DNA of 64,000 bases from Pseudolabrys sp. (GTDB lineage: Bacteria > Pseudomonadota > Alphaproteobacteria > Rhizobiales > Xanthobacteraceae): NCBI GenBank assembly GCA_029980465.1, contig JARYIJ010000001.1, positions 1,821,749-1,885,748 on the forward strand. The letters are read 5' to 3'. This document shows, piece after piece, positions 6,431-62,361 of this stretch (position 1 is the stretch's first letter; each line of letters starts with the position of its first letter). The notes below the pieces were generated by a model. That model saw only the letters and a list, made by a program, of their open reading frames with translations, made no database searches and had not been told where the DNA came from. A program made the translations under genes and the position numbers.

Positions 6431-6593
6431 CCGTGCGATCCGGTGGCTTGCTCGTCCCACGTACCGGGAGCCGGGGAAAAATGTCGGGGCAACAGCCAAT
6501 CAGATTGAGAGGGCAGCGCGACTCGTGCTTGAGTTGTAACGGGAGGCAACTACCGATTCTCTGGGGAGGGGGAGCTGCTGACGTGAGGCGACT

Positions 6594-24359: not shown

Positions 24360-24381
24360 GCCGCCGCGAGGCGGCTTTTTT
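24360..24381 (+). terminator. Rho-independent terminator
   Basis: GCCGCC-GCGA-GGCGGC stem-loop followed by TTTTTT. Confidence 0.75.
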
Positions 24382-24400
24382 CATTTCTGGAGAACATCGA

Positions 24401-25216: not shown

Positions 25217-25232
25217 ACATAGGAGTCCATCC

Positions 25233-25622: not shown

Positions 25623-25625
25623 GCC

Positions 25626-43939: not shown

Positions 43940-44428
43940 ATGGCTCGCACCATCCGCGACGCTAGACTCGTCACACGGGCCGCCCGCTTGCGGCTTGGCA
44001 TCCGCACCGAGCCGTATTGGCGCACGCTGGAGAAGCGCCTTGCGCTTGGCTATCGGCGCCGCACCAACGGTGGCACGTGGTTCGCTCGGCGGCGGACCGC
44101 GAGCGGGAGCTATGTCGAGCATAAAATCGCGACCACGGACGATTTGCAGGCCGCTGACGGGGTGGCGGTGTTCGACTTTGGCCACGCCCAACGTGCGGCG
44201 CGGGAATGGTGGCTCGCCGAACGGCGGCGGGAGGAAGGCCACGACACTCGGATTGGTCCTTTCACAGTCGCCGACGCGGTTTCGGATTATCTCGAAACTT
44301 TGAAACATGGTGATGGCAAATATGGTGGTAAATCCGCCTACCAGACCCGTTGGGCGGCTGAGGTGCACATCTTACCAGCGCTCGGCGCGCTCCAAGTCGC
44401 CAAGCTGAAAGCAGGGCAGATCAAGTAA
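43940..44428 (+). pseudogene. N-terminal fragment of a tyrosine integrase (arm-binding/SAM-like region only)
   Basis: MARTIRDARLV...GGTWFARRRTASGSYVEHKI...VADAVSDYLE. The catalytic domain is absent. Ends at the junction with IS701-like sequence. Confidence 0.6.
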
Positions 44429-45315
44429 CACATGAGCGCTGCTGACCCCGAGCACGTAGCCTTTGCCCGCCCGACGTAGCTGCTGCTCGATATCGCCAAC
44501 ACCGTAGACGGTGTCACCAGCAACCCACTTGAACGGTACAGACGCAGCGATCGCGCGTGCGATCGTTCTCGTCGCAAGCTTTGGTTTGGTCGCAAAGCCG
44601 ACATCGGCAGGCACATAGGCAGCTTCCAGACGATCCGGATCGTCGGTCCATTCCTTCGGAAGATACAGCGCACGATCGATGAATGCATGACCGTGGCGCG
44701 AAACATAGGCCGCGAAGACCCCGATCTGACAGTTCGTGATCTTACCCGCCGAACCAGTGTATTGCCGCGCCACTCCGCACGATGCCTTGCCCTGCTTGAG
44801 AAAGCCGGTCTCGTCGATCACGAGGACCGCATCGTCATCCGCCAAATGCTCGATGACATAATCGCGTACGATATCGCGTAGGGCATCCGCATCCCAATCG
44901 CTGCGACCCAGGATCGCCTGCTGACGCCATGGGCCGGGATCGCCAGCCGCCTCCGCGCGCATCCAACCGGTCTTGCGCTGCTAATCTCCGAGCAGGCCTT
45001 CCAGGAACAGACCTGCATTCGTTGCAACTCGCTCTTGCCCGAACAACGGACGTATCCGCTTCTTGATCTCCCGAAGCGACGCCGCCCACAACGCAAGCGT
45101 CTCTTCTATCGACGCTGCCCGCGTCCACGATCTTCGAATCATGTTGCCTATGGATTCAGAACTCCGTAAGAACAGCAACTGTAATGCTAGGATGCCAAAT
45201 GGAGTTGCGAAAAATTCCGCTGTCTTTTCAATTGATCGATTGTATCCCAGTCGCACTCCCATGTGGAAGATTGGGCACTCCGAATTCGGAGAATGTTAGT
45301 TTCCAGTTCCTGTCG
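44429..45315 (-). mobile_element. IS701-family insertion sequence remnant (transposase frameshifted and 3'-truncated)
   Basis: ORFs 44981-45262 and 44372-44962 together read as one transposase (LVIDETGFLKQGKASCGVARQYTGSAGKITNCQIGVF), with a frame break near 44965. The C-terminal third is missing. Confidence 0.75.
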
Positions 45316-45681
45316 CTCCGCCACTCCTGACGCGACCAACATTCTCTGCCGGGATTTCTCGCGGTGAAATCGCCAATAACGGCGGCCCTTCGCGCGAAAC
45401 CTCCGCACTGTGGTGAGCCCGTCGGGGCCCGAAATTCTGTCTCTCGGCCCGTTTGTCTCCAAACCTCCGCACTTCGCGGATTTAGTGCGGTTCTCGTAAG
45501 CAACTGATTTTGAAACTCTTTTCGCGACACCAACCTCCGCACTTTGCAGAGATATCGCGGGGTAGCGAGAGAGTCTGGGAGCGAACGCCGATGTTGATTT
45601 TGCGAGCGTTTGTCAGTCTCGGAGGATGGACCGGAACCGAGCGCATTGAATGCTCAGTCCGCCGCGGGTTACCTGCCCGTA
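45316..45681 (-). repeat. 366-bp repeat R, left copy (inverted relative to 58907-59272)
   Basis: All three shadow ORFs crossing the two copies translate identically, so the copies are 100% identical over 366 bp. Confidence 0.9.
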
Positions 45682-45723
45682 GACGTCGCGAGCTGATGCC
45701 AGAACCCGAGGTGGAGGACAACG

Positions 45724-46797
45724 TTGACTCGTCCGTTGACGCGCCTTTGGCGGACGCTGGAGGAGCTTCCACAGAGAGCAGCCGAAAGACTGGAATGGCG
45801 CCTACGCCTGGCTGACGAGTTGCTCGTGGCGGCGCGCCTTCTCCGTAGCACCGGTCGGCTGGTGCACGCCGTCGCTTGCCCGAGTCCTGGAGGAGATGGA
45901 TGCCCACGAAAGATTGTGCATCACGGTGATGGCCGTATCGTTGCGGTCTGTGGCGATCGACCTCAGCGGTGCGAGAGGCTAGACCTGCATCCAGATGATA
46001 TCGAAGTGCTGGAGCTCGATGAGCAAATCCTTTGCCGTGAACTGCGCCGGGTGCTTGCCCTCGATGAGCCACATATCCCCACAGCTCTGACGAAACTTGC
46101 TCACGTCGGTACGATTCCCGCCCGGGCGGGGCTTGGACTCCCAGTGCTTATTGGGTTTCCAAGCATGGATGTACCGATCTCGGCTCACGATATTCCGACT
46201 CTATCGGTGGGGGAGATACCGGGTCTAGTTCTCACCCCGACCGGCAGCTTTGTCGATGTCCTGCCGGGCGGCTGGTCCTCCCTGTCTCTCGGGCAACTCC
46301 TTGGAGCGGATGACAGCCGACACATCGTGGCACAGGAAGCGGCGCCTGCACTAATCGATGAGTTGAAAGCGAAGGCGATGGCCACGTCCACGTTTCCGCA
46401 CGACGTGATTTGGCGACTTCCACCGGACGCCCGCTGGGAAGAGATGGCGTTCGAATTCACGGCGAGCGATGCTCTCAACATCCGCTTTCGCGGGGAGAGC
46501 CGGAGTTTTGACTCTCAACAACTCGACATGAAGCGGAATAGGACTGGCAAGCCAACGAGCCAGTGGAAGCTCCTCCAAGGGTTCGCCGAAAATGGCGGTG
46601 AGATTTCTTGGTCCAGCCCCGGGGCCAATCCGACAGTCAAGAAGCAGAAGCAACTGCTTTCGGACAAGCTGATCAAAGCCTTCGGGATCGCCGACGATCC
46701 GATCAATTGGGTCAAGCGTTCCAATACCTATCGAACAAAATTCAAGATAAGTGGAACACCCTTGGGCTTTCGCCATGCCCAGGACGCTCGCCGGTGA
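45724..46797 (+). CDS. Hypothetical protein orfB2 (homolog of orfB1, Cys-rich segment)
   Basis: 357 aa with a TTG start preceded by GAGGTGGAGGA. Contains CPSPGGDGCPRKIVHHGDGRIVAVCGDRPQRCE. Confidence 0.7.
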   Translation: MTRPLTRLWRTLEELPQRAAERLEWRLRLADELLVAARLLRSTGRLVHAVACPSPGGDGCPRKIVHHGDGRIVAVCGDRPQRCERLDLHPDDIEVLELDEQILCRELRRVLALDEPHIPTALTKLAHVGTIPARAGLGLPVLIGFPSMDVPISAHDIPTLSVGEIPGLVLTPTGSFVDVLPGGWSSLSLGQLLGADDSRHIVAQEAAPALIDELKAKAMATSTFPHDVIWRLPPDARWEEMAFEFTASDALNIRFRGESRSFDSQQLDMKRNRTGKPTSQWKLLQGFAENGGEISWSSPGANPTVKKQKQLLSDKLIKAFGIADDPINWVKRSNTYRTKFKISGTPLGFRHAQDARR

Positions 46798-46981
46798 AAT
46801 TCACCGGGGAAATTACGTCTCACGCAGAAAAAATCTTTAGCGCCTAATCGATTGAATTCATTGGTACGGCAGGCAGCCAGTTCCATCTGACAGCCGGCTT
46901 TTTCGTCTCTCTCAGCGAAGTTTCGCGAGTGGCGAGTGATCGGGCCCAGAGCCCGCCACTCGGACCATTGGCGAAACCCCT

Positions 46982-47146
46982 ATGGAGACCAGCAATCGAG
47001 ACGGCGGCATCGACCGCCGCGTCATGCGCAACATACGGTTCAATGCTCGCCGCCTGGCGTGCGGCCACACTGTCCCTGGAATGGAGGTCGAAGATTACGA
47101 GCAGGACCTCGTTGCTGATCGGGGCTGCTCCGGGCCGGCCAGGTGA
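46982..47146 (+). pseudogene. Sigma-like gene remnant (first ~44 codons) fused to helicase-derived sequence
   Basis: METSNRDGGIDRRVMRNIRFNARRLA...EDYEQDLVAD matches 9020-9150. Homology jumps to the helicase gene at about 47117. Confidence 0.75.
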
Positions 47147-47658
47147 TCTGCGGGCGCAACGCAACGCGCATGCAGCTCAACCTCGCCATGAAGCAGGCCG
47201 CAGGCTTCGCTGCTTCCTATCCGACCGGGGCCGGCGAGAAGCTGATCTGTCTGCGCAATCGCAACGACATCGGCCTGGTCAACGGCATGTTCGTCACCCT
47301 CGACGAGATCGAGGAGGACGGCGACGAGATCGCCTTCAAGGCCGCGATCACCACCGAGGATGGGCAGAAGGTCGGGGGCGAGACCAACGACAAGCGCGAG
47401 CGCTTCCGCATCTATCGCGGCCACTTCGACGACCATCTCTCGCCCGATCCCGATCGGGACCGGCGCGACCATCATAAGAAGCGCACCCTGATCGAGTGCG
47501 TCTGGGGCTGGGCCATCACCTGTCACAAGTCGCAGGGCTCCCAGTTCGAGAACGTCGTGGTGTTCGACGACGGGCTCGGGCGCACGCCGCAGGATCGCGC
47601 GCGCTGGCTCTACACCGCCATCACCCGCGCCGAGCGCGGGCTGGTGCTGCTCGATTGA
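47117..47658 (+). pseudogene. 3' fragment of the RecD-like helicase gene (copy 2)
   Basis: Matches 14060-14580 (QVICGRNATR...ITCHKSQGSQFENVVV). Walker motifs are lost. Confidence 0.8.
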
Positions 47659-47665
47659 GGCGCCA

Positions 47666-50608
47666 ATGCTCGACCTCAACGACGCGCAACCTGTATGGCC
47701 GTTCGAGCGGTTTGACCTCGATGCCATCGTCTCGCGTCTGCGCGATAGCGCCGAGCAATGGGTTCCGCAACTGTTCCCGAACGGCCGGCGGGTCGGCGAT
47801 GAATGGCGGCTCGCCAATATTCAGGGCGCCGCGCCGCGCAAGAACGGCTCTTGCGTGATCGCGCTTGCCGGCGAGCATGCGGGCGACTGGATCGACTTCG
47901 ATGGTGGTGATGGCGGTGGACCGCTCAGCACATTGGAGAATGCAACGGGACTCAGCGGACGCGAGCTGTTCGCCTACGCGGCCGATCTGACGAAAACGGG
48001 CGCGCAGCCGAAACGGTCCGCCGCCAAGCCGTCGACCAAGCAGGCCGATCAGGCCCGTGAGATCGAACATATCCTCTCCAAGGCAGTGCCAATCGCGGGC
48101 ACCTTGGGCGAACGATATCTCGCTTCGCGTGGCCTACCGGCGTCCTACTGCTCCGACCTTCTGTTCCATTCCGACCTGACGCATTGGGAAAGCCGGCGTG
48201 GCTTTCCGGGCCTGGCAGCCGTGGTACGGGACGTTGCCGGGAACCGCATCGCGCTCCACCGCACCTATCTCGCCGACGACGGCACCGCCAAGGCGCCGGT
48301 CGATAACCCGCGAAAAATGCTGGCCTCGATCGCAGGCGGCGCCGTGCGTCTCGCCGACCTGACCAAAGATGGCGTCATCGGGCTCGCCGAAGGTATCGAG
48401 ACGGCGCTCTCGGTGATGGTGGCATGTGCGCGCCTGCCGGTCTGGGCAACACTCTCGGCCTCGAACCTGGAACAGGTGGCTCTGCCCACCGAGATGCGGA
48501 AGGTCGTGCTCCTTGCCGACCACGATCCCTCCGGCGCTGGTGCGCGCGCGGCCGAGACTGCTGCCGCCCGTCTGCACGCCGAGGGCCGGCGGGTCTTCAT
48601 CGCCATGCCGCCAAAGGAGGGCGACGACTTCAATGACCTGCTGCTGCGCGACGGCGTCGATGCCGTGCGCAGAATCGTTGAGGCGGCGGTCGAATGGGGC
48701 GCCCACAGCAACGACGACCGCGTGATCCTCGCCATCGACAGCGGCACGCACAAGCCGATCGGCTTCGGGCAGTCGGATCGCCCCCGACCGCAGTTGCGCG
48801 CCGACAATGGCGATCTGGCGCGCGCAGTGTCGCAGGCGTGGCAGATTCTGCTCGCCGCCAACGATCCGCCCTGGATGTTCCGTGCCGCCGGATGTCCGAC
48901 CTGGGTGGTGCGCGACGACGACGGCCTGCCCATGGCGAAGCCCCTGACCGAGGATCGCCTGCGTCCGGTGCTCGCCCAGCTCGCCGATTGGCGAAAGCTC
49001 TCCCGCAACGGCGATCTTATCCCGGCGCATCCGCCCTTGGCGGTGATCAAGTCGATCCTCGCCACACCCGATCCGGCGCTTCCCGTGCTGGCAGGCATCG
49101 TCACGACGCCTGTGTTCGGCCGCGAGGGCGAGCTCATCACCGAGCCCGGCTACCATCCGGCTGCGCGCCTGCTCTACGACCCGCCCAAGGGCTTCGTCCT
49201 GCCGCCGGTGCCGGCGAAGCCTACGCAATCCGACATCGTCGTTGCACGGTCTCTGCTGCTCGACGACCTATTGGGAGATTTCCCGTTCATCGGCGAAGCC
49301 GAGCGCGCGCATGCGCTTGCGCTCCTTCTCGTCGGCTTCGTGCGCGCCATGATCGATGGGCCGACCCCGCTGCATCTGGTCGAGAAACCGACCCAAGGCA
49401 CCGGCGCGACCCTGATGGTGGACGTGATGTCGGTCGTCGCGATCGGCTGCCGCGCGAGCGTCATGGTCGAGGGCAGCGACGACGAGGAATGGCGCAAGCG
49501 CCTGACCGCCAAGCTACGCCAGATCCCGTCCGTCGTCCTGATCGACAATCTTCGCCGACCGCTCGACTCCTCGGCGCTCGCTGCCGCGCTCACCGCGCCG
49601 TTTTGGGAAGACCGCATCCTCGGTGTCTCGGAAACGACACGGCTGCCCATTCGCTGCATCTGGATCGCCACCGGCAACAATGCCGAGTTCTCCGGCGAGA
49701 TGGCGCGCCGGCTCGTGCGCATCCGTCTCGACGCCCGCGTCGACCAGCCCTGGCGCCGCAATGGCTTCCGCCATCCCGATCTCATTGGCTGGGTTCATGC
49801 CAACCGGGCGGATCTTGTGGCCGCCTGTCTATCGCTCTGCCGCGGCTGGATCGCGGCCGGAATGCCACGCGGGAGCAAACACATCGGCAGCTTCGAAGCC
49901 TGGTCCGCCCTCATGGGCGGCCTGCTCGAGGCGATCGGAGTGCGAGGCTTCCTCGGCAACATCGACGAGATGCTCGAAGCCTCCGACGGCGAGGGCGCGG
50001 TCTGGCGCGTGTTCGTCGGTCAATGGTGGGATCGCTTCGGCACGGCAGAGGTTGGCACCAGCGGACTCTATGAGCTCGCCGTCAATTGCGAGCCTCCGCT
50101 GCCGCTCGGCACCGGCGGCGACCGATCCCAGCGCACCCGGCTCGGCAAAGCGCTCGTGCGCATGCGCGACCGGGTCTTCGACATCGCCGGACTGAAAGCG
50201 CGCATCCGGGCGATCGGGGTTTCCCATCAGGCGCGCCGCTGGCAGCTCACGCTCGAAGGGGAACATGGGGAACGTGGGGAACGTTTTTCGGAGTCGTCCG
50301 ATTTCGGGAAAGGGGAACGTCAGGCTGCTTTAGAGCAACGTTCCCCTCAACATTCCCCGGCCTATCCCATTGATGGACAAGGCGTCGGGGAACGTGGGGA
50401 ACCTGGGGAACGTTTTTCCGACCTACGCGCACGCGCGCGCGTACACAATAATAAAGAAGAGCAAACACGTTCCCCACGTTCGTCACGTTCCCAAAACGGT
50501 GTTGGTTCAGACGCTTACGACGGGGAACATGGCGGGGAACGTCATAACGCACGTTCCCCACGTTCCCCGCTGAATGAATCGCCCGATTGGCTGAAGGGGG
50601 TGCCGTGA
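47666..50608 (+). CDS. Toprim primase / replication initiator, copy 2
   Basis: 980 aa, colinear with 14588-17539. Roughly 85-90% identical by eye. Confidence 0.8.
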   Translation: MLDLNDAQPVWPFERFDLDAIVSRLRDSAEQWVPQLFPNGRRVGDEWRLANIQGAAPRKNGSCVIALAGEHAGDWIDFDGGDGGGPLSTLENATGLSGRELFAYAADLTKTGAQPKRSAAKPSTKQADQAREIEHILSKAVPIAGTLGERYLASRGLPASYCSDLLFHSDLTHWESRRGFPGLAAVVRDVAGNRIALHRTYLADDGTAKAPVDNPRKMLASIAGGAVRLADLTKDGVIGLAEGIETALSVMVACARLPVWATLSASNLEQVALPTEMRKVVLLADHDPSGAGARAAETAAARLHAEGRRVFIAMPPKEGDDFNDLLLRDGVDAVRRIVEAAVEWGAHSNDDRVILAIDSGTHKPIGFGQSDRPRPQLRADNGDLARAVSQAWQILLAANDPPWMFRAAGCPTWVVRDDDGLPMAKPLTEDRLRPVLAQLADWRKLSRNGDLIPAHPPLAVIKSILATPDPALPVLAGIVTTPVFGREGELITEPGYHPAARLLYDPPKGFVLPPVPAKPTQSDIVVARSLLLDDLLGDFPFIGEAERAHALALLLVGFVRAMIDGPTPLHLVEKPTQGTGATLMVDVMSVVAIGCRASVMVEGSDDEEWRKRLTAKLRQIPSVVLIDNLRRPLDSSALAAALTAPFWEDRILGVSETTRLPIRCIWIATGNNAEFSGEMARRLVRIRLDARVDQPWRRNGFRHPDLIGWVHANRADLVAACLSLCRGWIAAGMPRGSKHIGSFEAWSALMGGLLEAIGVRGFLGNIDEMLEASDGEGAVWRVFVGQWWDRFGTAEVGTSGLYELAVNCEPPLPLGTGGDRSQRTRLGKALVRMRDRVFDIAGLKARIRAIGVSHQARRWQLTLEGEHGERGERFSESSDFGKGERQAALEQRSPQHSPAYPIDGQGVGERGEPGERFSDLRARARVHNNKEEQTRSPRSSRSQNGVGSDAYDGEHGGERHNARSPRSPLNESPDWLKGVP
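50258..50569. repeat. Iteron array, copy 2 (GGGGAAC[G/A/C]T units around an AT-rich core at ~50445-50462)
   Basis: Same unit, same block order and same orientation pattern as 17180-17499. Confidence 0.7.
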
Positions 50609-50651
50609 TGCCGCGCGCCCTTGATGCCAATTTGCTCCGCGGAGGCGCGCC

Positions 50652-50969
50652 ATGAGCCGGCAGCGCCTTCCCGAACGCAGGCCAAGCGTCACGACCACGT
50701 TCGTGCACGACTGCCGGTCCTATGCGGTGACGTTCGGCTTCGACCCGAGCACCGGCCGCATCGGCGAAGTGTTCACGCACGGCGCCAAGGTAGGCTCCGC
50801 CATGGACGGCATCCTCGACGATGCCTGTATCGCGCTGTCGCTTCTGCTGCAACATGGCGTCGAGCCCACGGCGCTTGCGACGAGTATGGGGCGGCTCGGC
50901 GACGGCAAGACGCCCGCGTCTGTCATTGGTGCACTCGCCGATCTCATCGCTCTCGAGGTGCAGCCGTGA
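50652..50969 (+). CDS. Conserved small phage-type hypothetical protein (copy 2)
   Basis: 105 aa homolog of 17583-17900. Confidence 0.6.
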   Translation: MSRQRLPERRPSVTTTFVHDCRSYAVTFGFDPSTGRIGEVFTHGAKVGSAMDGILDDACIALSLLLQHGVEPTALATSMGRLGDGKTPASVIGALADLIALEVQP

Positions 50970-51166
50970 GGTGGATGCCCAAGGGATACGGCGGCCACCG
51001 GCGTCCGCCCGAAGAGGTCAAGCGCGAGGGCTGGCACGAGCACGGCATCCTGGTGGTCAGCGCGGACGATCAGCGTCTCACCTGGCCTGAGCGTGAACTG
51101 ATCCGGCAACTCGGGGGAAGACTGTACGGGAAGCGATCATCGAACAAGGAGGCGTGCCATGGCTGA
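50966..51166 (+). CDS. Small hypothetical protein (copy 2)
   Basis: 66 aa with a GTG start overlapping the upstream stop (GTGA). Homolog of 17897-18097. Confidence 0.5.
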   Translation: MRWMPKGYGGHRRPPEEVKREGWHEHGILVVSADDQRLTWPERELIRQLGGRLYGKRSSNKEACHG

Positions 51167-51587
51167 TTGGACGCCGGCTTGTGTCGAAGCGCGGCTGCAC
51201 GAGGCGGCCGACGTGATGAAGCGTCTGCCCGAGGTCCGCGTGCAGGGCTACTACTCGCTGTGGCCGAAGATGCTCGCCGAGTTCAGCGATTTGGTTGGCC
51301 AGGAACCTCAGCGCCTCAAGCGTCCTCCTCCGTCTCCCGATGCCATCACGCGGATGGAGGAGACACTGGGCTGGTTGCGGTGGCTTGAAGCCGAGGATGC
51401 GAAGCTCGCCTGGGCGCGCGCCGAGCGCACCCCATGGAAAATGATCTGCTGGCGGTTCGGTATCGCTCGCGCCACCGCGCATCGGCGCTGGCAATATGTG
51501 CTGAGCGTGATCACGTGGCGGCTCAACGGGCGGAGGGTGCCGGGGAAGCGGTCACGGCGATTCGTGGTCGAAAGAGCCAAGGCTTGA
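51159..51587 (+). CDS. Hypothetical phage-type protein (copy 2), divergent C-terminal tail
   Basis: 142 aa homolog of 18090-18530. The last ~10 aa differ at the mer junction. Confidence 0.6.
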   Translation: MADWTPACVEARLHEAADVMKRLPEVRVQGYYSLWPKMLAEFSDLVGQEPQRLKRPPPSPDAITRMEETLGWLRWLEAEDAKLAWARAERTPWKMICWRFGIARATAHRRWQYVLSVITWRLNGRRVPGKRSRRFVVERAKA

Positions 51588-51591
51588 GATT

Positions 51592-52032
51592 CTATGCTTC
51601 AGCCGGCGGACGACGAACGTCGAGAACGTCAAGCACTGGGCATTCTGGTGCGGTAGTTCCAGTGCAACGCGCAACTGTCTTCGCCAGCAACCGCTCCAGC
51701 TTGCGAAGGTCAGCTATCTTGGCGCGAATCTCGTCGAGATGATGCGAAGCGATTTCGCGAACTTCCCGACATGAGGCTTTTGCGGGGCCGCCGAGCCGAA
51801 TCAGCGCGCGGACCTGATCGAGAGAAAATCCCAACTCCCGCGACCGGCGGATAAAGGCCAGGATACGAAGGTGAGTGGCGTCATAGACGCGACGCCCACC
51901 GGCTGTGCGCGGCGGCGCCGGGAACATCTTGATCCGCTCGTAGTAGCGGATTGTCTCGATGTTCACGCCGGTAAGTTCCGACAAATTACCGATTGTTAAC
52001 GCTTCCGCTCGCGCATCTGTGATCGAGCCCAT
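51592..52032 (-). CDS. merR: Mercury-responsive regulator MerR
   Basis: 146 aa. HTH is IGNLSELTGVNIETIRYYE. Three Cys residues are spaced as in MerR (ASC, ARC, PEC). Confidence 0.9.
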   Translation of the reverse strand: MGSITDARAEALTIGNLSELTGVNIETIRYYERIKMFPAPPRTAGGRRVYDATHLRILAFIRRSRELGFSLDQVRALIRLGGPAKASCREVREIASHHLDEIRAKIADLRKLERLLAKTVARCTGTTAPECPVLDVLDVRRPPAEA

Positions 52033-52043
52033 GGTGACCGGCC

Positions 52044-52074
52044 TTGCTCCTGTAGTGACTACAGGAAGTATACC
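52044..52074 (+). promoter_or_regulatory. mer operator/promoter: -35 TTGCTC, 19-bp spacer containing a perfect 9-bp dyad, -10 TATACC
   Basis: TCCTGTAGT-G-ACTACAGGA at 52048-52066 lies between -35 (52044-49) and -10 (52069-74). The 19-bp spacer is the MerR hallmark. Confidence 0.8.
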
Positions 52075-52100
52075 GCCCGCGATCCAGAGAGGACAACGAA

Positions 52101-52514
52101 ATGAGCGAAACGCGCAGCGCCATGGGTTCTATTGCATTGAGCGATCGCCCTGCCAACGCCTCGCCCGGCAAGGGTCAAAAGCTGGCGGCGGCGGGCGGGA
52201 TCATCGGTGCGCTCGCCGCATCGTCGTGCTGCATTTTGCCGGTCGTTCTCTTTAGCCTTGGTGTCAGTGGCGCATGGATTGGAAACTTCACGCAGCTTGC
52301 GCCCTATCAGCCGTATTTCATTGCGGCCACGCTCGCTTTCATCGGCACCGGCTATTGGTTGGTCTATCGCTCGTCAAAGGTCGCCTGTGCAGAGGGTGAG
52401 GCTTGCGCACGGCCATTGCCTAACAGATTCGTTAAGATCGCGCTCATTGCGGCGACCGTCATTGTTCTTGCCGCCTGGGCCTTCGACTATGTCGCCCCCT
52501 ACGTGCTGTCCTAA
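52101..52514 (+). CDS. merT: Mercuric ion transport protein MerT
   Basis: 137 aa. Vicinal Cys pair in the first TM (ASSCCILP) and a second Cys pair (CAEGEAC). Confidence 0.88.
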   Translation: MSETRSAMGSIALSDRPANASPGKGQKLAAAGGIIGALAASSCCILPVVLFSLGVSGAWIGNFTQLAPYQPYFIAATLAFIGTGYWLVYRSSKVACAEGEACARPLPNRFVKIALIAATVIVLAAWAFDYVAPYVLS

Positions 52515-52531
52515 CCAATGGAGCAAATCAA

Positions 52532-52816
52532 ATGATGAAGTACGTCATCCCTGTTACGCTCTCGCTCGGCATCATCGGTCCTTCGTCTGCTCGTGCAGCG
52601 GAAAAAACGGTGACGCTCGCGGTGCAGAACATGTACTGCGCCGCGTGCCCGCACACCGTTAAATCGAGCCTGCAATCCGTGCCGGGTGTCAAAGCGGTTT
52701 CGGTGTCATTCAAAAACAAGACTGCCATCGTGACCTTCGACGACGCAAAGACCAACGTGAAGGCGCTGACGACAGCGACGACGAACGCCGGCTATCCGTC
52801 CTCTCCGAAAGGCTGA
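52532..52816 (+). CDS. merP: Periplasmic mercury-binding protein MerP
   Basis: 94 aa with a signal peptide and heavy-metal-associated (HMA) motif NMYCAACP. Confidence 0.9.
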   Translation: MMKYVIPVTLSLGIIGPSSARAAEKTVTLAVQNMYCAACPHTVKSSLQSVPGVKAVSVSFKNKTAIVTFDDAKTNVKALTTATTNAGYPSSPKG

Positions 52817-52823
52817 GCCTCCG

Positions 52824-53075
52824 GTGAAAGCAGCCGGTACCACAATTGGAGCAGTGCTCGTTGGCGCCCTTGCGGTGGTTTGCTGCGCCACGCCAGCGAT
52901 TATTGCGGGCATCAGCGTGACGGCGCTCGCAGCTTGGCTCTCCTATTCGGGATACGTGCTGATCGCAGCCGTGCTGATTGCCGGTGCGGTCGGCTGCGTC
53001 CTGTGGCTCCGGCGTCGCGGCATCAATGCTCAAGCGTGCTGCGGGCCAGCAAAGAAGGCGTCAAATCATGAGTGA
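52824..53075 (+). CDS. merF: Two-TM mercury transporter MerF-like
   Basis: 83 aa with a GTG start and two vicinal Cys pairs (VVCCATP and QACCGP). Confidence 0.7.
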   Translation: MKAAGTTIGAVLVGALAVVCCATPAIIAGISVTALAAWLSYSGYVLIAAVLIAGAVGCVLWLRRRGINAQACCGPAKKASNHE

Positions 53076-53669
53076 CTGTTGCGCGTCTGGAAATCGCGGC
53101 AAGCAATTTGATCTCGCCGTCATCGGTGCGGGGTCGGCAGGCTTTTCGGCGGCGATCACTGCGGCAGAACAAGGTGCGCAGGTGGCTCTGATTGGTCATG
53201 GCACTCTTGGCGGCACATGCGTCAACATCGGTTGCGTGCCGTCAAAAACACTAATCCGGGCCGCTGAGACACAGCATCAGGCCAGCGCCGCCGCGCGCTT
53301 CGCAGGCATCAGGGCCAAAGGGCAGGTGGGCGATTGGACAGCGACCGTCCAGCAGAAAGACGAGCTCGTTTCGAGCCTGCGCCAATCGAAATACGCCGAT
53401 CTTTTACCGGCTTATAACAACATCTCTTACGTCGAAGGGCAGGCCCGCCTTGCCGAAGGTGGCGTGGCCATCAATGGCGATCTGATCAAGGCGCCGCGCC
53501 TTATCATCGTCACGGGCGCACGGCCTGCAGTGCCCTCGATCCCCGGTCTTGATGCTGTCGAGTATCTGACAAGCACCACCGCGCTATCCCTTGAATGCCT
53601 CCCGAAGTCATTGCTTGTGATCGGCGGGGGTTACATCGGCGCTGAACTAGCGCAGATGTTTGCGCGCAT
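53068..53669 (+). pseudogene. merA: Mercuric reductase MerA, 3'-truncated (about 200 of ~470 codons; no NmerA domain)
   Basis: MSDCC..., FAD motif GAGSAGF, redox-active GGTCVNIGCVPSK. Breaks after GGGYIGAELAQMFAR, where portal-derived sequence starts. Confidence 0.85.
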
Positions 53670-54146
53670 GAGCGGCAGCATCTCCGACGGCAGCATCTGA
53701 AGCTGGAGCGGGACCGTGAGCCCGTCCTGCGGCCGGCGCGGCCGGAAACGGAAGAACACTTCGCCTGCGATGAACACTTCGCGTGCCGCGCGGCGTTGCA
53801 GGCCATAGAAGTCCGTGAAACCTTCGGCGTCGGCCTCGTCGGTCCAGTCGAGCCAAAGCTTCTGGACCTGCGCTTTGACGCCGGTATCTTTGATCAGGGA
53901 TGACGGCTTGATGCCGGCACCCACAACGTTACCGGCCCAGCTCTCGATCGCGTTCGCCGCGTAGCCGTTGTTGCGAATTAGCCAGCGGGCGCGCGCCGTG
54001 ATGTCGGGACCGGCCGCCGCAATGAGCGTGTTGAGATGCGCGCGGCTCGGCTGGAAGCCCTTGAGCCTGCGGTTCGCGAGTCCTGCTTCGAAGCCGCCGA
54101 TGAAGGCTCCAACCCGCCGCCGGAACGCTGTCAGGGAGGCGAGCAC
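53670..54146 (-). pseudogene. N-terminal fragment of a lambda-type phage portal protein
   Basis: GFEAGLANRRLKGFQPSRAHLNTLI...RWLIRNNGYAANAIESW...FRFRPRR. Truncated at the merA junction. Confidence 0.75.
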
Positions 54147-54359
54147 TCAGAGGCCTTTCGAGGCAGACGTGAGAATGCGGCGCTTGCGGCCACCCTCCTG
54201 GGCCGCCGCGATCCGCCGCTCGAGGTCCGTGATTGCGGCTGCCATCTCGGCATCGCTGCCGTAGGTGACGCGGCGGCCGTCGATCTCCACGGTGCGCACG
54301 CCGCGGAAGCGCGCGGCGAGCAGCGCGTCCCGTTGCGCGGTCATCTCTTCGAGCGTCAT
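54147..54359 (-). CDS. Phage head-tail joining protein (gpW-like)
   Basis: 70 aa located between the terminase and portal fragments, as in lambda A-W-B order. Confidence 0.65.
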   Translation of the reverse strand: MTLEEMTAQRDALLAARFRGVRTVEIDGRRVTYGSDAEMAAAITDLERRIAAAQEGGRKRRILTSASKGL

Positions 54360-54363
54360 GAGT

Positions 54364-54588
54364 TCAGCCCAGATAGCTCGACCGGAACACGCGCCGCGCT
54401 CGGCGCTCAGGCCGTCGGCGGATCACGCCGGCGACGGGATCGCTTTCCGCGGCGGGATCGGTGGTTTGACTGCGCTCATCTTCGTCAGGCGGGCCGATCT
54501 GACTCTCCAGGTCACGCCACATCGCGTCGGTCCAGCGATCGGCGCCGGCGATCCACGCGGCTGCTCTCGCGTAGACCAGCGTCCGCGG
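54364..54588 (-). pseudogene. C-terminal fragment of a terminase large subunit (lambda GpA-type position)
   Basis: My own translation reads ...VYARAAAWIAGADRWTDAMWRDLESQIGPPDEDE..., ending 4 nt before the gpW start. An in-frame TAG lies at the upstream breakpoint. Assignment is by position and weak similarity. Confidence 0.45.
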
Positions 54589-54804
54589 CTACGTCCGCGA
54601 GCTGCAATCCCAGATTCAGGTGCTCTCGGAGCGCGCCGCGAACCTCGCCGCCAATCTGGCAGCGGCGAACGAGCAAAACGAGCTGCATCTCGCGCGTATC
54701 GATGCGCTCCAGGATGAGCTCGCGAAGGCCAAGGAGCCGCGCGACGTGAGCCCGGAGCCGCCGCCGGGCTGATCCGATCCTCCCGTTTCCGATCCTCAAC
54801 CTAG

Positions 54805-54825
54805 GCCGCCTCCGGGCGGCTTTTT
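54805..54825 (+). terminator. Rho-independent terminator (counterpart of 24360-24381)
   Basis: GCCGCC-TCCG-GGCGGC followed by TTTTT. Confidence 0.7.
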
Positions 54826-54841
54826 CATTTGGAGAACCGAC

Positions 54842-55657
54842 ATGGCGGCTTCGACCTACGACGAGGCGCTGCGGCGCCTGCTCGCCCACGAGGGCGGTTA
54901 TACCAACCATCCGTCCGACCCCGGCGGCCCGACGAATTTTGGCATCACGATCTACGACTACCGCAAATACGTGAAGCCGAACGCCACAGCCGCCGACGTG
55001 CGCTCCATGACGGTCGGCGAGGCCAAGGCGATCTATCGCAAGCGCTACTGGGATGCGGAGCGCTGCGATGAGCTGCCCGCCGGGGTCGATTACTCGGTGT
55101 TCGATTATGGCGTGAACAGCGGGATCGGGCGCAGCGGCAAGGTGCTGCGCCGCATCGTCGGGCTGCCCGACAGCACCCACGTGGTCACCGACGAGGTGCT
55201 GCGCGCTATCGCCAGGCGCGACCCGAAGGCGCTTGTCGTCGCGATCAATGACGAGCGCCTGGCCTTCCTCAAGCGCCTGAAGACCTGGCCGGTGTTCGGC
55301 AAAGGCTGGGGCGCGCGCGTCGCCGCCGTCAAATCCGTCAGCCTGCGCATGGTGTCACAACAGACGTCGGCACCCCCGATCGCGCCGGGCGCCGCACCTG
55401 TCCCCGGCAAGGGCGTCGTGCCGGCGCCGGCAGCCGCAAAGAAAGTGATCGTTGGGACCGGCACCGCCGCTCCGGTCGCTGCCGGCGGCGGCTTCTGGGA
55501 CTGGATCGCGGCCCACCCCTTCGAGACCGCAGCGCTTGGCTGCGGCGTCGTCCTGATCGTCGGCAGCTCGGTCTACGCGCTCAACCGCTGGCACCAGCGT
55601 CGGCAGGAAGCCGCCATCCCCGAAACGCCTTTCGTCCCCGCGCTCGCCACCGCCTGA
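54842..55657 (+). CDS. Phage lysozyme GH108 + PG_binding_3 (copy 2)
   Basis: 271 aa, colinear with 24401-25216. Confidence 0.88.
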   Translation: MAASTYDEALRRLLAHEGGYTNHPSDPGGPTNFGITIYDYRKYVKPNATAADVRSMTVGEAKAIYRKRYWDAERCDELPAGVDYSVFDYGVNSGIGRSGKVLRRIVGLPDSTHVVTDEVLRAIARRDPKALVVAINDERLAFLKRLKTWPVFGKGWGARVAAVKSVSLRMVSQQTSAPPIAPGAAPVPGKGVVPAPAAAKKVIVGTGTAAPVAAGGGFWDWIAAHPFETAALGCGVVLIVGSSVYALNRWHQRRQEAAIPETPFVPALATA

Positions 55658-55673
55658 ATATTGGAGGACACCC

Positions 55674-56063
55674 ATGCTGCTCTACATCTCGATCGCCGCA
55701 ACGCTCGTTGCGGTCTATTGGTTCTGGATTCGTCCGATCCTGAAATCGCGCCCCGCCTTCCGCGAGCTCTACCAGGAAGAGGAGAATTTCTTCGCCGCCC
55801 TGCGCGCAAAATTTGCCGGCATCAAGCAGAAGCTGTCGTCCGCGGTCGTGATCGCCGCGAGCGCCATCGTGAGCGGCTACGACTTCTTCGCGCCGATCGT
55901 CGGCGGCGTCGATGTGAGCTCGATCGCGGCGCAGGTGCCGTCTTGGGCTTGGCCGCTGATCCTGATCGTCGTGACTGCCGTCATGAAATACTTCCGCGAT
56001 CTTTCCGACAAGCGGCGTGAAATCGAACTAGGTGATGGGTCGTCCGCGCCACAGGAGAAGTGA
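55674..56063 (+). CDS. Membrane protein, holin candidate (copy 2)
   Basis: 129 aa homolog of 25233-25622. Confidence 0.5.
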   Translation: MLLYISIAATLVAVYWFWIRPILKSRPAFRELYQEEENFFAALRAKFAGIKQKLSSAVVIAASAIVSGYDFFAPIVGGVDVSSIAAQVPSWAWPLILIVVTAVMKYFRDLSDKRREIELGDGSSAPQEK

Positions 56064-56067
56064 CGCC

Positions 56068-56457
56068 ATGTGGACTTGGCTTGGGAGCCTCATCGGCGGC
56101 CCCGTCGTTACTGGCCTCATCAATGCCTACAGGGCGAAGCTCGACGCCGCGAACACGCAGGACCGGATCGCGGCCGACCTCGCCGCCAAAGAGATCGAGG
56201 CGGAGATCGAGGCGCGCAGGCAGGCCTCCGCCATCATCATCGCTGAGCAGGGCCGCTGGTACACGGCGATCATTCGGCCGCTGCTTGCGCTGCCGATCAT
56301 CATCTATTTCTGGAAAGTGATCGTCTGGGACAAGGTGCTCGGGCTCGGCAGCACCGATCCACTCACCGGCATGATCGCCGATTGGAGCGGCTTGATCATC
56401 ACTGCATACGTCGGCGGACGCTCGATCGAGAAAGTCGCGCGGATTTTCAGGCGATAG
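56068..56457 (+). CDS. 3-TM holin-like membrane protein (copy 2)
   Basis: 129 aa from MWTWLGSLIGG. Homolog of 25626-26015. Confidence 0.5.
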   Translation: MWTWLGSLIGGPVVTGLINAYRAKLDAANTQDRIAADLAAKEIEAEIEARRQASAIIIAEQGRWYTAIIRPLLALPIIIYFWKVIVWDKVLGLGSTDPLTGMIADWSGLIITAYVGGRSIEKVARIFRR

Positions 56458-56472
56458 TCCGAAGGTGCTCAG

Positions 56473-56754
56473 ATGAGTGCAAGCCAAGACGAATTCAAAA
56501 GGCCGAAGCCGCTGCTCGATCGGACAATCACCTACGGTCATATTCTGACGGCGATCAGTTTTGTGATCGCAGGGACGGCAGCATTCTTCGGAATGAAAGC
56601 GGAACTGCAGAATGTCGATCAGCGCGTCGCCAAGATCGAAGCGACGCTCCAGCAGCTTGCGAACGTCGTGGTGCAGACCGCCCGACAGGACGAGCGGCTT
56701 AATGCTATCGAGCGGCGTGTCGATCGCCTCGAACAATCGTCAACCCACCGCTGA
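56473..56754 (+). CDS. TM + coiled-coil protein (spanin-like candidate), unrelated to 26046-26396
   Basis: 93 aa with one central TM followed by a heptad-like C-terminus. Confidence 0.45.
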   Translation: MSASQDEFKRPKPLLDRTITYGHILTAISFVIAGTAAFFGMKAELQNVDQRVAKIEATLQQLANVVVQTARQDERLNAIERRVDRLEQSSTHR

Positions 56755-57225
56755 CGAGATTGGCACGAAGGGCGCCGCTGTGTCTTTCAAAAACATTGCC
56801 GCAATCTGTTCGCCCTGGCGGATGATGGCCGCATCAGCTGCGGGGACAAATTCGGCAACGGAACGTTGCCAATCGTCCATCGGGATTTTCGGCTCAAATA
56901 TCGGAGCATCCAGACGAATGACCGAAGGCGGACCAAGGAGAAGACGAACTTGATTTGTCGCGGCGAGTGATTGCAGCCGCATGGCGGCTTCGATGATCCT
57001 CTTCCAGTGCCAAAGACCGCCCTTCGTGATCTCGGCTCGCGACACGATGTACTTGTCGTCGCCGCAACCGAGGCTCGGCGCCTTGAGCAGGGCCTGGTCG
57101 ATCTCGCTCTGGCCGTCGATTCCGCCCGGGCGGACGATCATGGTCACCTTGGCGAAGGTGCCGTCGGGAATGAGTTCGCCGGTCTTCTGCGGCTCGGCAT
57201 CGTTCATGTCGAACATGGTGGTCAT
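56740..57225 (-). pseudogene. DUF669-like gene remnant (first 49 codons, 57079-57225) fused to unrelated lower-GC sequence
   Basis: MTTMFDMNDAEPQKTGELIPDGTFAKVTM...QALLKAP matches 11194-11340, then diverges. Confidence 0.7.
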
Positions 57226-58157
57226 CCTCTGCTGGTCTGGTTGATCTTGCGGAGCAGCGCGCCGAGGTCGGGCGGCTCAGTGAGGTCGAGGCGGCCGGAG
57301 CGATCCTTGCCCGGCAGGCCGAAGGGATTGGCCGACTGGCAGACGAGGCGGCGCACCTCGCCGCGATCGGGCTCGTGACGCCAGGTGTCGCCATCGGGCG
57401 CGAACCGGCTCATGGAGATCACCTGGTCGACGATGCCGGGGAGCTCGCGGGCAGCCTTGCCACCCTCCATCTGCGGCTGCCAGGTGACGCGGTTGAACTC
57501 GTCGGTGACGCGGTCCAGGATCCCGACGAAGATCACGGTGCGGCCTGGCACGTGTTGCAGGTGCTTCAGGAGCCCGATGGTTTCGCGCGCGAGCAGGCCG
57601 TAAGCGCCGCGGGTGTCAGGCTTGCCGGTCCGCTCCGACTGCGCTTCCGGTCGCGTCTTCGCCCAGGCCATGGCGAGCCGCGTGAGGTCGGTGATGGAGT
57701 CCACGAAGATGATGCGCTTGCCCGCGATCATGCGGACGAGGTCGGGATAGGTGTCGCCGAGATGCCGGTAGTGGCTTTCGCAAAAGAAGGTCTTCTCATC
57801 CGCCGCCGGATCAACGCCGCCGACGAGGCAGGCGACGTCGAGAGCATCGGCGAAGCTGCGCACGGGGATGCTGTCGCCGGGCCAGTCCTGGACCGACTTC
57901 ATGCCGGCTTCGAGATCGATGCAGAGCGTCTCCGCCGGTGGCAGGGTCTTGAGCAGCGAGGTCTTGCCGACACCCGAGGGCCCGAAGATCGCCATCGTGG
58001 TCTTCGCATGCGCCTCGGCGAGCCGCTGATCGGCGGTGATGATGCGCAGCGCCAGCCGCATGAGGCCGGTAGCTAGAATCTCGGCGATTTCGGTAAGGCG
58101 CTCGGCGGCGGAAAGATGCTGGGGCGATAGAGGGTTGGGGATCGAAGCGGTCGGCAT
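57222..58157 (-). CDS. Sak4-like ATPase (copy 2) carrying a foreign 35-codon N-terminal leader
   Basis: From ALRIITADQRLAEAH onward it matches 10364-11197. The leader MPTASIPNPLSPQHLSAAERLTEIAEILATGLMRL matches the small ORF at 6430. Confidence 0.7.
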   Translation of the reverse strand: MPTASIPNPLSPQHLSAAERLTEIAEILATGLMRLALRIITADQRLAEAHAKTTMAIFGPSGVGKTSLLKTLPPAETLCIDLEAGMKSVQDWPGDSIPVRSFADALDVACLVGGVDPAADEKTFFCESHYRHLGDTYPDLVRMIAGKRIIFVDSITDLTRLAMAWAKTRPEAQSERTGKPDTRGAYGLLARETIGLLKHLQHVPGRTVIFVGILDRVTDEFNRVTWQPQMEGGKAARELPGIVDQVISMSRFAPDGDTWRHEPDRGEVRRLVCQSANPFGLPGKDRSGRLDLTEPPDLGALLRKINQTSRG

Positions 58158-58315
58158 TTTTGGCCCCGGTTACCTGGCTGTCACCTACCGGGCGTCGGGG
58201 GAAACTGTCGGGATACTGCATCGCAAAGGTTGTGATAATTGTGCGACTCGTGATTTAGTGGTGAGGAAGTCTAAGAATCGCTTCTCTGGCGCGCACTCTA
58301 CATAGGGGTGATCGC

Positions 58316-58903
58316 ATGGCTACCTTCAGGCTCCGGAAATTCAGCCACCCTGATGCTCTTAGAGCCATTGCGCCTGCTAGGCTGACGACATTTCTCCGCC
58401 AATACATGGAATATTTCAGAGGTCGCGGCGTCGCATTGCCGGAGGACGGTATGTTCTCCGGCGATGCAGAGATGTGGGACGCGCAGCAGGCTCAACATGA
58501 GCTATTGCTGCAGCTCGCGAATAAATCTGATCTCGCAAAATATTTTGAAGAGAATGCCAACCAGCAGGTCGATCCGATTCTCCTCGATGAGAATGGCTTC
58601 GTTGTAAATGGGAATAGACGCCTCTCGTATTGGCGCGAGCTCCTGCACAAAGAATCAACCAAATACGGTCATTTCCGTCACATCGACGCCGCGGTGCTCC
58701 CACATTGCGATGAGAAAGAGATCGACCGACTCGAAGCGACGCTGCAGATCGAAAAGGACATCAAGGCCGACTACAGCTGGGATGCCAGAGCTAACATGAT
58801 GCTGGCTAAACAGAAGCGTGACGGCTTTTCCAACAAAGAACTTGGCGAGCTTTACGGCATGAAGGAGAGCGACGTCGAAGAGCTTCTCGATATGCGTGCT
58901 TAG
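58316..58903 (+). CDS. orfA2: orfA1-type N-terminus (~45 aa) joined to a ParB/Srx-like domain
   Basis: 195 aa. MATFRLRKFSHPDALRAIAPARL... then FVVNGNRRLSYW (ParB-type G-x-x-R box). The region is visibly AT-richer. The stop lies 4 nt before repeat R. Confidence 0.6.
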   Translation: MATFRLRKFSHPDALRAIAPARLTTFLRQYMEYFRGRGVALPEDGMFSGDAEMWDAQQAQHELLLQLANKSDLAKYFEENANQQVDPILLDENGFVVNGNRRLSYWRELLHKESTKYGHFRHIDAAVLPHCDEKEIDRLEATLQIEKDIKADYSWDARANMMLAKQKRDGFSNKELGELYGMKESDVEELLDMRA

Positions 58904-58906
58904 CTA

Positions 58907-59272
58907 TACGGGCAGGTAACCCGCGGCGGACTGAGCATTCAATGCGCTCGGTTCCGGTCCATCCTCCGAGACTGACAAACGCTCGCAAAATCAACATCGG
59001 CGTTCGCTCCCAGACTCTCTCGCTACCCCGCGATATCTCTGCAAAGTGCGGAGGTTGGTGTCGCGAAAAGAGTTTCAAAATCAGTTGCTTACGAGAACCG
59101 CACTAAATCCGCGAAGTGCGGAGGTTTGGAGACAAACGGGCCGAGAGACAGAATTTCGGGCCCCGACGGGCTCACCACAGTGCGGAGGTTTCGCGCGAAG
59201 GGCCGCCGTTATTGGCGATTTCACCGCGAGAAATCCCGGCAGAGAATGTTGGTCGCGTCAGGAGTGGCGGAG
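58907..59272 (+). repeat. 366-bp repeat R, right copy, with three AGTGCGGAGGTT boxes
   Basis: Boxes at 59045, 59115 and 59179, plus a degenerate AGTGGCGGAGG at 59263. Identical to the reverse complement of 45316-45681. Confidence 0.9.
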
Positions 59273-59383
59273 GGAGAAATCCTCTGTGCCAACTCGCTCT
59301 TCGTAATCGCGCGCAAGGTGGAGTGGCTACGAGAAGTACTGAGAATCGATCTGCAGACCTCCTCCTGCTGTCAAAGGTCGCCT

Positions 59384-59776
59384 TCAACGGTCGGTAGAAT
59401 CATCGATGATGCTCTGGACTACTTCCACGATCCCTTTGAGCTTCTCGTGTGCATCGATGAGTCGACGCGCTCCCGCGTAATGTTGGCGCCCAGCGCGCTG
59501 CAGGAATAGCTCGAAAATCGCGTCCGAAGAACCCGCGAGTGCGATCAGATGGTGGCCGCTCGGTCCCCTCGAACCAGCAAACCAGTACTTCACCGTCCGC
59601 TCGCTGGCCCCGGTCCAGCGCATCGCTGATTTGACCGCTTGGTGCGTCGTACCGAGTTCTCTTCGCAGGGCAGCGGCTATCGCAATTGCATAGTCTACAT
59701 CGGAATCGTGCCCACGGTTGGGCTGGTGCACAACTGTGCCCTTTTTCGGCACAAGTGTGCCCTTTTTCGCAGGCAT
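59384..59776 (-). CDS. Small hypothetical protein, possible HTH regulator
   Basis: 130 aa, divergent from the recombinase gene. Contains AMRWTGASERTVKYWFAG. N-terminal tandem KKGT(L/V)V is encoded by a direct DNA repeat. Confidence 0.5.
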   Translation of the reverse strand: MPAKKGTLVPKKGTVVHQPNRGHDSDVDYAIAIAAALRRELGTTHQAVKSAMRWTGASERTVKYWFAGSRGPSGHHLIALAGSSDAIFELFLQRAGRQHYAGARRLIDAHEKLKGIVEVVQSIIDDSTDR

Positions 59777-59849
59777 GTTTTCGACCCTCCCCCGTTAAAC
59801 TGGTGAAGGGCCATCAACGGCAGAACTGCTCTCGCGCGTCCTGCGGCTG

Positions 59850-62359: not shown

Positions 62360-62361
62360 GC

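Follow-up and report, generated by a model that had tools for sequence, protein, structure and literature searches.

Does the 13,225-bp segment that lies between two inverted copies of a repeat, termed R, in the genome of Pseudolabrys sp. represent a small circular replicon captured as a unit? The question is raised by the 64,000-nt stretch analysed here (assembly GCA_029980465.1, contig JARYIJ010000001.1, positions 1,821,749 to 1,885,748; hereafter, the window), in which two open reading frames (ORFs), orfA2 and orfB2 (B2), are located at the opposite ends of the segment (45682-58906). In a paralogous element of the same window (copy 1), the order was confirmed to be A1 (6594-7790, plus strand) followed directly by B1 (7732-8838, plus strand). 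From this arrangement, a first-pass annotation proposed that a circle carrying an A-B operon had been opened between the two genes. Our analysis indicates instead that the break lies inside the A gene and that the segment is a decayed, repeatedly rearranged prophage remnant between inverted R copies, probably built by serial illegitimate recombination. The value of this result is mainly corrective: an apparently clean split operon, or captured replicon, is a broken gene in a scrambled prophage remnant, and R is linked to tRNA-Ser genes and apparently to genomic islands, and is not a transposon end. The features of the locus are listed in Table 1.

The stop codon of orfA2 and the start codon of B2 are positioned near R as first annotated, but orfA2 (58316-58903, with its stop codon 3-4 nt ahead of R', the right copy of R) is not an A gene. 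It is a chimera, in which A codons 1-45 are fused to codons 46-195 derived from an unrelated defence-island gene. Residues 1-45 are 100% identical to the A protein (417 aa) of the closest relative, a metagenome locus (L010) whose B protein is 89% identical to B2, and 53% identical to A1. DNA homology to L010 spans 58053-58450, i.e. the upstream region plus 135 nt of A, and ends at 58450. At the other end of the segment, the 43-nt sequence preceding B2, which had been taken for a spacer of about 50 bp with a GAGGTGGAGGA ribosome-binding site (RBS), is A 3' coding sequence (...PEPEVEDNVD...) belonging to the last 44 codons and stop codon of A. This piece shows 87% amino acid identity to residues 377-415 of the L010 A protein, with DNA homology starting from TAGACG (45680). 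A codons 46-373 (328 codons, 984 nt) are present nowhere in the window. The break is thus placed inside A and not between A and B, because the 5' and 3' pieces of A sit at opposite ends of the segment and the middle has been lost. B2 itself has 80 database homologues with a typical length of 350-367 aa.

The remainder of orfA2 (residues 46-195) matches residues 86-235 of an uncharacterised protein family, here called family X (P0002-P0026), at 60-81% identity; the full length of this family, ~440 aa, is an estimate from overlapping partial sequences. The homology ends at 58902 and is followed by the filler GCTA and then by R'. All family X members run on as LLDMRAYADEYLRSR at the point where orfA2 stops, and the stop codon of orfA2 is a product of the junction. 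The N-terminal 85 residues and the C-terminal half of X are absent from the window. The genomic contexts of X are defence islands containing genes for a methyltransferase, a BglII-type endonuclease, X, an SNF2 helicase, a NOV_C nuclease, and a toxin-antitoxin pair; X never adjoins a B gene. Pfam, NCBIfam, PADLOC, and PHROGs contain no model for A, B, or X, and searches of PDB sequences with B-family and family X profiles found nothing. In one set of loci (L003-L008), the island consists of genes for an HTH protein, an N6/N4 methyltransferase, a BglII/BamHI-type endonuclease, X, a 140-aa ORF, a ZorD/DpdE-like SNF2 helicase, a NOV_C nuclease, and PhD-YoeB, and could be an undescribed defence system.

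In total, 45 loci related to the segment were gathered, comprising three metagenome contexts (L010, L013, and L014) and 42 prophage contigs from IMG/VR. In all 43 relatives with sequence upstream of B, an A-type gene abuts or overlaps B and nothing intervenes; native separation of A and B, or an R located between them, was found in none of the 43. The A protein is 390-420 aa long wherever the contig allows, and a sigma-like gene comes after B. The ancestral A-B synteny assumed by the first-pass annotation is therefore real and is split in the segment, but by a break within A. The gene order of the family is serine integrase, DUF2924, A, B, sigma-like gene, AAA_24, and, further on, helicase and DUF7146/Toprim primase. 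The segment contains family-homologous B, helicase, primase, DUF6362-like, and lysis genes and is what remains, in degenerate form, of a temperate phage of this serine-integrase family, to which copy 1 also belongs; it is not an intact member, its A gene being in two end pieces and its sigma-like gene being cut after codon 46. None of the 45 relatives contains X or an R-like sequence. The invariant A-B-sigma-like early module defines an uncharacterised serine-integrase prophage family with >40 members. A single-protein scan of viral contigs with B2 gave no match, and an alignment-based scan was needed. The phage GenBank collection gave no match to 45000-59600, and in the plasmid collection only two flanking features, the IS701 remnant and the recombinase/ParB module, had matches.

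Two further observations concern this family. In many IMG/VR relatives (L034, L036, L039-L041, L044-L046, L048, L051-L054, L058, and L068), the DUF2924-integrase pair follows B at a distance of ~5 kb, in the same orientation; the family thus has two natural placements of the integration module, since the pair lies either downstream of B or divergently upstream of A. Copy 1 carries tandem paralogous genes for proteins with ParB-N and N6-N4 DNA methyltransferase domains (18899-20287 and 20223-21440, plus strand), which share 68% DNA identity over ~390 nt.

The junctions of the segment were located by comparison with copy 1 and with L013/L014. The conserved blocks show 80-91% DNA identity to copy 1, and breakpoints beyond the A split were found at 47120/47126, 51557, 54805, 56457, ~57075, 58054, 58450, and 58902-58906, so that the segment consists of at least nine blocks joined by at least eight further illegitimate junctions. 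All junctions examined have 0-4 nt of microhomology, one of them with the 4-nt filler. The inverted AAA_24 block illustrates the degree of rearrangement: the ORF 57222-58157 (minus strand) is an in-frame fusion at 58054 of codons 1-34 of a small gene, normally found upstream of A in divergent orientation, to AAA_24, which has lost its own ATG at this point and whose downstream neighbour has been cut to ~50 N-terminal codons. The divergent promoter region 58158-58315 may still drive expression of the fusion ORF. No recognisable relative was found for the fillers 51557-54805 and 56458-57074, and the segment contains no integrase, DUF2924, partition, or virion module, only a portal fragment and the lysis block being there.

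The primase gene appears intact and contains GGGGAAC(N) iteron-like repeats in its 3' end (50258-50292, 50387-50421, and, inverted, 50463-50492); direct and inverted triplets of the same kind are present in copy 1 (17180-17214, 17309-17343, and 17398-17423). By analogy with phage P4 alpha/ori, these primase-internal triplets are a candidate origin. The primase ORF and the repeats are likewise present in integrated relatives. As to the phage-plasmid-like ancestor suggested earlier, the segment as a whole is a patchwork lacking partition, integrase, and virion genes and is not a coherent replicon.

When the blocks are numbered in their canonical order, i.e. 1 (start of the small gene), 2 (upstream region and A 5' end), 3 (A 3' end, B, and sigma-like start), 4 (AAA_24), 5 (helicase C-terminus and primase), and 6 (lysis), the segment reads 3 5 6 -4 1 2, which is an exact rotation of -4 1 2 3 5 6. 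The segment is thus rotated relative to every relative, because its two ends are the 3' and 5' pieces of A on the same strand, and circular permutation was a correct description of the gene order. A single inversion and a flip by recombination between R and R' were both considered as ways of restoring the canonical order, and neither does so; the flip restores no canonical adjacency because it leaves the types of junction unchanged. Near the junction of A with X lies an att-core-like 8-mer, which was judged compatible with chance.

R is a 369-nt inverted repeat with arms at 45313-45681 and 58907-59275, its boundaries with the segment being as first annotated, with a single mismatch at 45315 and 366 nt of perfect identity. 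Its three 12-nt motifs, AACCTCCGCACT, account for all six matches to this sequence in the window, against 0.25 expected. R is non-coding; it has no transposase ORF and lacks terminal inverted repeats of its own. Target-site duplications were found at neither copy, in direct or inverted form (flanks TTCCTG/R, R/GACGTC, TAGCTA/R', and R'/GGAGAA), nor was any duplication found at the outer positions 45312/59276. R is not a transposon end.

The R junctions were checked with an independent k-mer assembly of run SRR22113990. Four contigs (L001, L002, L073, and L074; spans 58025-58936, 45652-46942, 63335-59243, and 45345-34372) each stop exactly 30 nt into the perfect repeat, and all four junctions are therefore real in the reads. 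Each end of R has exactly two neighbours in the read graph; therefore, only the assembled path or its flipped isomer is possible. The circular 58906-45682 junction expected of a free circle did not occur at comparable abundance in the read contigs, as L001 and L002 continue 30 nt into R without branching at 58906 or 45682, although a rare form is possible.

A scan of 185,579 species genomes for two AACCTCCGCACT-type motifs 45-70 nt apart yielded 14 loci. Five of these (Betaproteobacteria, Kofleriaceae, and Spirochaetaceae) are tandem intergenic repeats unrelated to R and were excluded from the R family. The remaining nine (L017, L018, L021-L026, and L029) are R-family loci in Pseudorhodoplanes and uncultured alphaproteobacterial metagenome-assembled genomes (MAGs), two of them from one genome. 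About 300 nt of R can be aligned with them at 77-87% identity, from ~50-75 nt inside the inner boundary to the outer boundary, so that the family-conserved part is ~45313-45634 on the left (58955-59275 on the right) and the innermost 50-75 nt are locus-specific. In four loci (L021, L023, L024, and L026), an intact tRNA-Ser gene (GGA or CGA anticodon) is present and the element begins at its 3' end; four others have no tRNA gene, and L025 ends at a contig edge where the gene would lie. The outer boundary of R is exactly the tRNA 3'-end core CTCCGCCA (8-13 nt), which is all that the R copies retain of a tRNA gene, ARAGORN having detected none in the window. Three of the loci without a tRNA gene (L017, L022, and L029) have an outer flank homologous to the left flank of R (45283-45312 and beyond), and the left copy is therefore in its native context. 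Both flanks vary among the family loci; the inner ones differ at every locus and often contain restriction-modification, methylase, or other island-type genes, and also a VapE-like primase. R is thus a duplicated, ~320-nt, non-coding, tRNA-Ser-linked family element plus 50-75 nt of locus-specific sequence.

The context of these loci suggests that R-family elements form the tRNA-proximal arm of genomic islands that target tRNA-Ser genes. No further copy of the tRNA-Ser 3' end was found in the 8-kb family loci or in the window. Rfam returned nothing at the gathering threshold for the whole window and nothing at E<=10 for R, and RNAalifold applied to 10 R-family sequences gave a positive (unfavourable) covariation term with few compensatory pairs; an RNA structure for R is unsupported because of this lack of covariation. 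A 23-mer taken from the inner end of R found no exact match in the metagenome contigs. With its three motifs and its absence from Rfam, the ~320-nt element could mark integration hotspots for defence islands. A bolder combination, to which we assign little probability, is that the R family is an undescribed cis element, either the integrase-binding arm of, or a transcript from, widespread tRNA-Ser defence islands of Hyphomicrobiales, and at the same time that R-segment-R' is a primase/iteron-driven circle of a defective prophage captured at a head-to-head pair of att arms; if true, the ends of integrative islands could trap replicating DNA.

Tandem 60-70-nt intergenic repeats were found directly upstream of genes at three betaproteobacterial loci (L019, L027, and L028) through the 12-mer they have in common with R; each repeat holds a reversed copy of an RBS plus start codon (CAT…GGTAACCTCCGCACT).

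We consider a series of illegitimate recombination events, including deletions, at least one inversion, and one duplication-type event, to be the probable source of the structure. The duplication-type event would have rotated the gene order and may have been a tandem or inverted-tandem copy of the prophage trimmed by later deletions or, equivalently, a re-joined circular by-product. The inverted R repeat is probably the leftover of a longer inverted duplication, in which case one inner R junction would be older than the duplication and the other would come from a later deletion; the common inner boundary of R needs no special site, because a longer inverted duplication could later have been trimmed on one side. 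B2, primase, and lysozyme are intact ORFs but are severed from the promoter region upstream of A, and nothing in the segment appears to work as a unit. The two R copies could permit RecA-mediated flipping of the segment. Several points weigh against this history. The order of events cannot be reconstructed from the available structure; the rotation is most simply made via a circle or a tandem dimer, which is close to the idea of the first-pass annotation; and the window shows neither a second copy of the prophage nor a reciprocal junction. Moreover, a plausible att core lies on the outer side of both R copies, a hint that the outer junctions arose by site-specific and not by illegitimate recombination, and the island-arm role of R is read from its context, with no integrase within the 8-kb family loci. 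Overall, the locus is ordinary in kind, a rearrangement fossil.

The alternative that best survives, possible but rather unlikely in our judgement, is a circular intermediate: the rearranged prophage would have been excised or replicated as a circle, with the intact primase gene and the iteron-like repeats as its means of replication, linearised inside A, and end-joined between two head-to-head chromosomal R copies. The exact rotation of the block order, the location of both segment ends within the same gene on the same strand, and the end-joining-like junctions (TA microhomology and the GCTA filler) are all accommodated by this route. Opening between the two genes, as originally proposed, is not, since the opening lies within A and is accompanied by a foreign 456-nt fragment that includes the 4-nt filler. 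Even with an opening inside A, the ends do not abut, 984 nt being missing and 456 nt being foreign; the closing junction (56458-57074) has neither an att site nor an integrase; the read contigs contain no circular junction; the empty site would be an unstable 738-nt perfect palindrome; and the phage family otherwise integrates through its serine integrase.

A site-specific inversion cassette, in which a tyrosine integrase acting on inverted tRNA-Ser-type outer att cores, or RecA acting on R, flips a 14-kb unit and thereby maintains the repeat, is improbable. In its favour, the CTCCGCCA core stands at the outer boundary of each R copy, the two copies match perfectly over 366 nt, and short-read contigs cannot discriminate the two orientations; however, inversion between two sites duplicates no arm, no tyrosine integrase lies near R in the window, and the segment consists of junk whose genes show no arrangement that depends on orientation, so that the cassette would account for possible flipping and not for the origin. 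Still less likely is an artefact of assembly or a chimera of strains: the sequence comes from a Pseudolabrys MAG (3.43-Mb contig) and repeats are classic mis-join points, but the long reads on which a 3.4-Mb contig depends greatly exceed the length of a 369-nt repeat, and all four junctions, with two neighbours per R end, were recovered in the independent assembly.

The weakest explanation, scarcely credible, is transposon-type capture, by a cointegrate between an element ending in R and a circular A2-B2 replicon or by intramolecular transposition of R that inverted the segment; two identical R copies do bracket the segment and inverted copies do arise by intramolecular replicative transposition (PMC4471558), but the copies here are non-coding 369-nt sequences in inverted orientation that lack a transposase, their own terminal inverted repeats, and duplications, R relatives lie at tRNA-Ser 3' ends with no transposase nearby, and this explanation is thus already contradicted on its defining features. 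A cointegrate contains direct copies of the complete element and direct target duplications, whereas intramolecular replicative transposition yields inverted copies with the target halves at opposite element ends and an inverted duplication (PMC4471558); here, the A 3' piece and the A 5'-X piece both abut the inner end of R. Replicative transposition of the IS26, Tn3, or Mu type is therefore similar in that identical copies bracket DNA, inverted ones by the intramolecular path, and dissimilar in that R lacks transposase, ends, and target duplications and that both pieces of the broken gene face the same R end. R likewise differs from the arms of composite transposons (Tn5/Tn10) in having no transposase ORF and no outside duplication at 45312/59276.

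The segment, as a probable product of serial illegitimate recombination, is closest to two known kinds of structure, namely cryptic prophage remnants and inverted duplications at rearrangement breakpoints. Cryptic prophages, such as Rac, e14, and CP4-57 of Escherichia coli K-12, have decayed by deletion, inversion, and insertion. The segment resembles them in that integrase and virion genes have been lost, other genes have been truncated and fused, foreign DNA has been inserted, and the site is a hotspot for mobile elements; it differs in being rotated with both ends from one gene and in lying inside a perfect 366-nt non-phage inverted repeat. Inverted duplications at breakpoints are known from Salmonella tandem inversion duplications and staggered-break inversions; they share with the locus an inverted repeat of a few hundred nt bracketing rearranged DNA, little or no junction homology, and remodelling by later deletion, although the fit is limited because the parental arrangement is unavailable and the rotation requires at least one further step. 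In Campbell-type integration, of which lambda is the paradigm, the map of the prophage is a circular permutation of that of the circular genome, with direct att cores and an internal integrase. The segment is similar in its rotated gene order, whereas its permutation point lies in a coding sequence with both loss and gain of DNA, its repeats are 369 nt long and inverted, its cores are inverted, and no integrase is inside. Genomic islands targeting tRNA genes have att arms and accrete in tandem at tRNA 3' ends. The R family is alike in starting at the last 8-13 nt of tRNA-Ser, in being conserved beside variable cargo, and in carrying repeated short motifs resembling arm-type sites, with degenerate tRNA-3'-end repeats by the left copy; the window differs in having no tRNA gene and in having the element twice and inverted, and the family loci differ in the lack of an integrase within their 8 kb. 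Compared with phage-plasmids, the segment has no partition or stability genes and no complete virion module; its primase ORF and iteron-like repeats would be the candidate replication initiator and origin, and both are also present in integrated relatives.

Table 1. Features of the R-bracketed segment, its flanks, and copy 1 (positions in the window)
Feature	Position	Strand	Remarks
Copy 1 reference order	4453-8838		Serine integrase (-), DUF2924 (-), A1 (+), B1 (+)
IS701-family remnant	44427-45191		Left flank
120 nt with degenerate tRNA-3'-end-like repeats	Up to 45312 (left flank, 44427-45312)		Continues the R-family native context
R, left copy	45313-45681	+	Runs inward from tRNA-Ser-3'-end-like core GCTCCGCCA to inner boundary
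Three 12-nt motifs AACCTCCGCACT	45398, 45462, 45532 (span 45398-45543)	+	Mirrored at 59045-59190
A 3' piece (a3), codons 374-417 plus stop (44 codons)	45681-45815	+	Left end of segment; overlaps B2 start
B2, full-length, 357 aa	45724-46797	+	TTG start; Cys-rich CPSPGGDGCPRK motif; starts 43 nt after R; overlaps A remnant
Sigma-like gene, codons 1-46 only	46982-47120	+	Cut at 47120, joined to helicase C-terminus
RecD/UvrD-like helicase, C-terminal fragment	47126-47658	+	ORF 47143-47658, last 171 codons, UvrD_C_2 only; N-terminal ~290 codons absent
Primase-type gene, DUF7146 and Toprim, apparently intact	47666-50608	+	Same arrangement in copy 1
Foreign/fragmentary filler	51557-54805		Relatives carry other genes here
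merR-type regulator	51592-52032	-	Within filler
Pyridine-nucleotide-disulphide oxidoreductase, truncated	52978-53700	+	Within filler
Lambda-type portal fragment, 171 codons	53631-54146	-	Within filler
Lysis block	54805-56457	+	GH108 lysozyme (54842-55657) and two small genes; 86% identical to copy 1 24360-26015
~600 nt of unassigned origin	56458-57074		Between lysis and inverted AAA_24 blocks; closes the rotated order
Inverted AAA_24 block	57075-58157	-	91% identical to copy 1 10365-11344
A 5' piece (a5), codons 1-45	58316-58450	+	Preceded by native upstream region 58053-58315; 81% DNA identity over 58053-58450
X fragment and 4-nt filler GCTA	58451-58906	+	X residues 86-235, cut off at R'; 456 nt
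R', right copy	58907-59275	-	Inverted; outer flank extends the canonical core 5 nt further (TCTCCCTCCGCCA)
Right-flank module	59384-63261		Small gene (-), large serine recombinase (59850-61472), ParB/RepB-like genes (61475-62359 and 62362-63261)

The large serine recombinase of the right flank lies outside the segment and shares only 24% identity with the integrase of copy 1. The four-gene recombinase/ParB module to which it belongs is conserved on alphaproteobacterial plasmids, among them those of Roseomonas, Marinibacterium (L072, pLA6_006), Agrobacterium, Sinorhizobium, and others. The locus, in which the IS701 remnant and the island end lie beside a prophage and a recombinase/ParB module of plasmid type, appears to be a graveyard, or hotspot, of mobile elements. 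An aromatic-degradation operon (29-43 kb) borders it on the side opposite the recombinase/ParB module. The recombinase/ParB module, which includes RepB-C-domain genes, appears to be chromosomal here. Within the foreign filler of the segment (51592-53700), the MerR-family regulator gene (minus strand) lies ~950 nt upstream of, and divergent from, the truncated oxidoreductase gene (plus strand), and the pair may be the remnant of an inserted mercury- or redox-resistance module.

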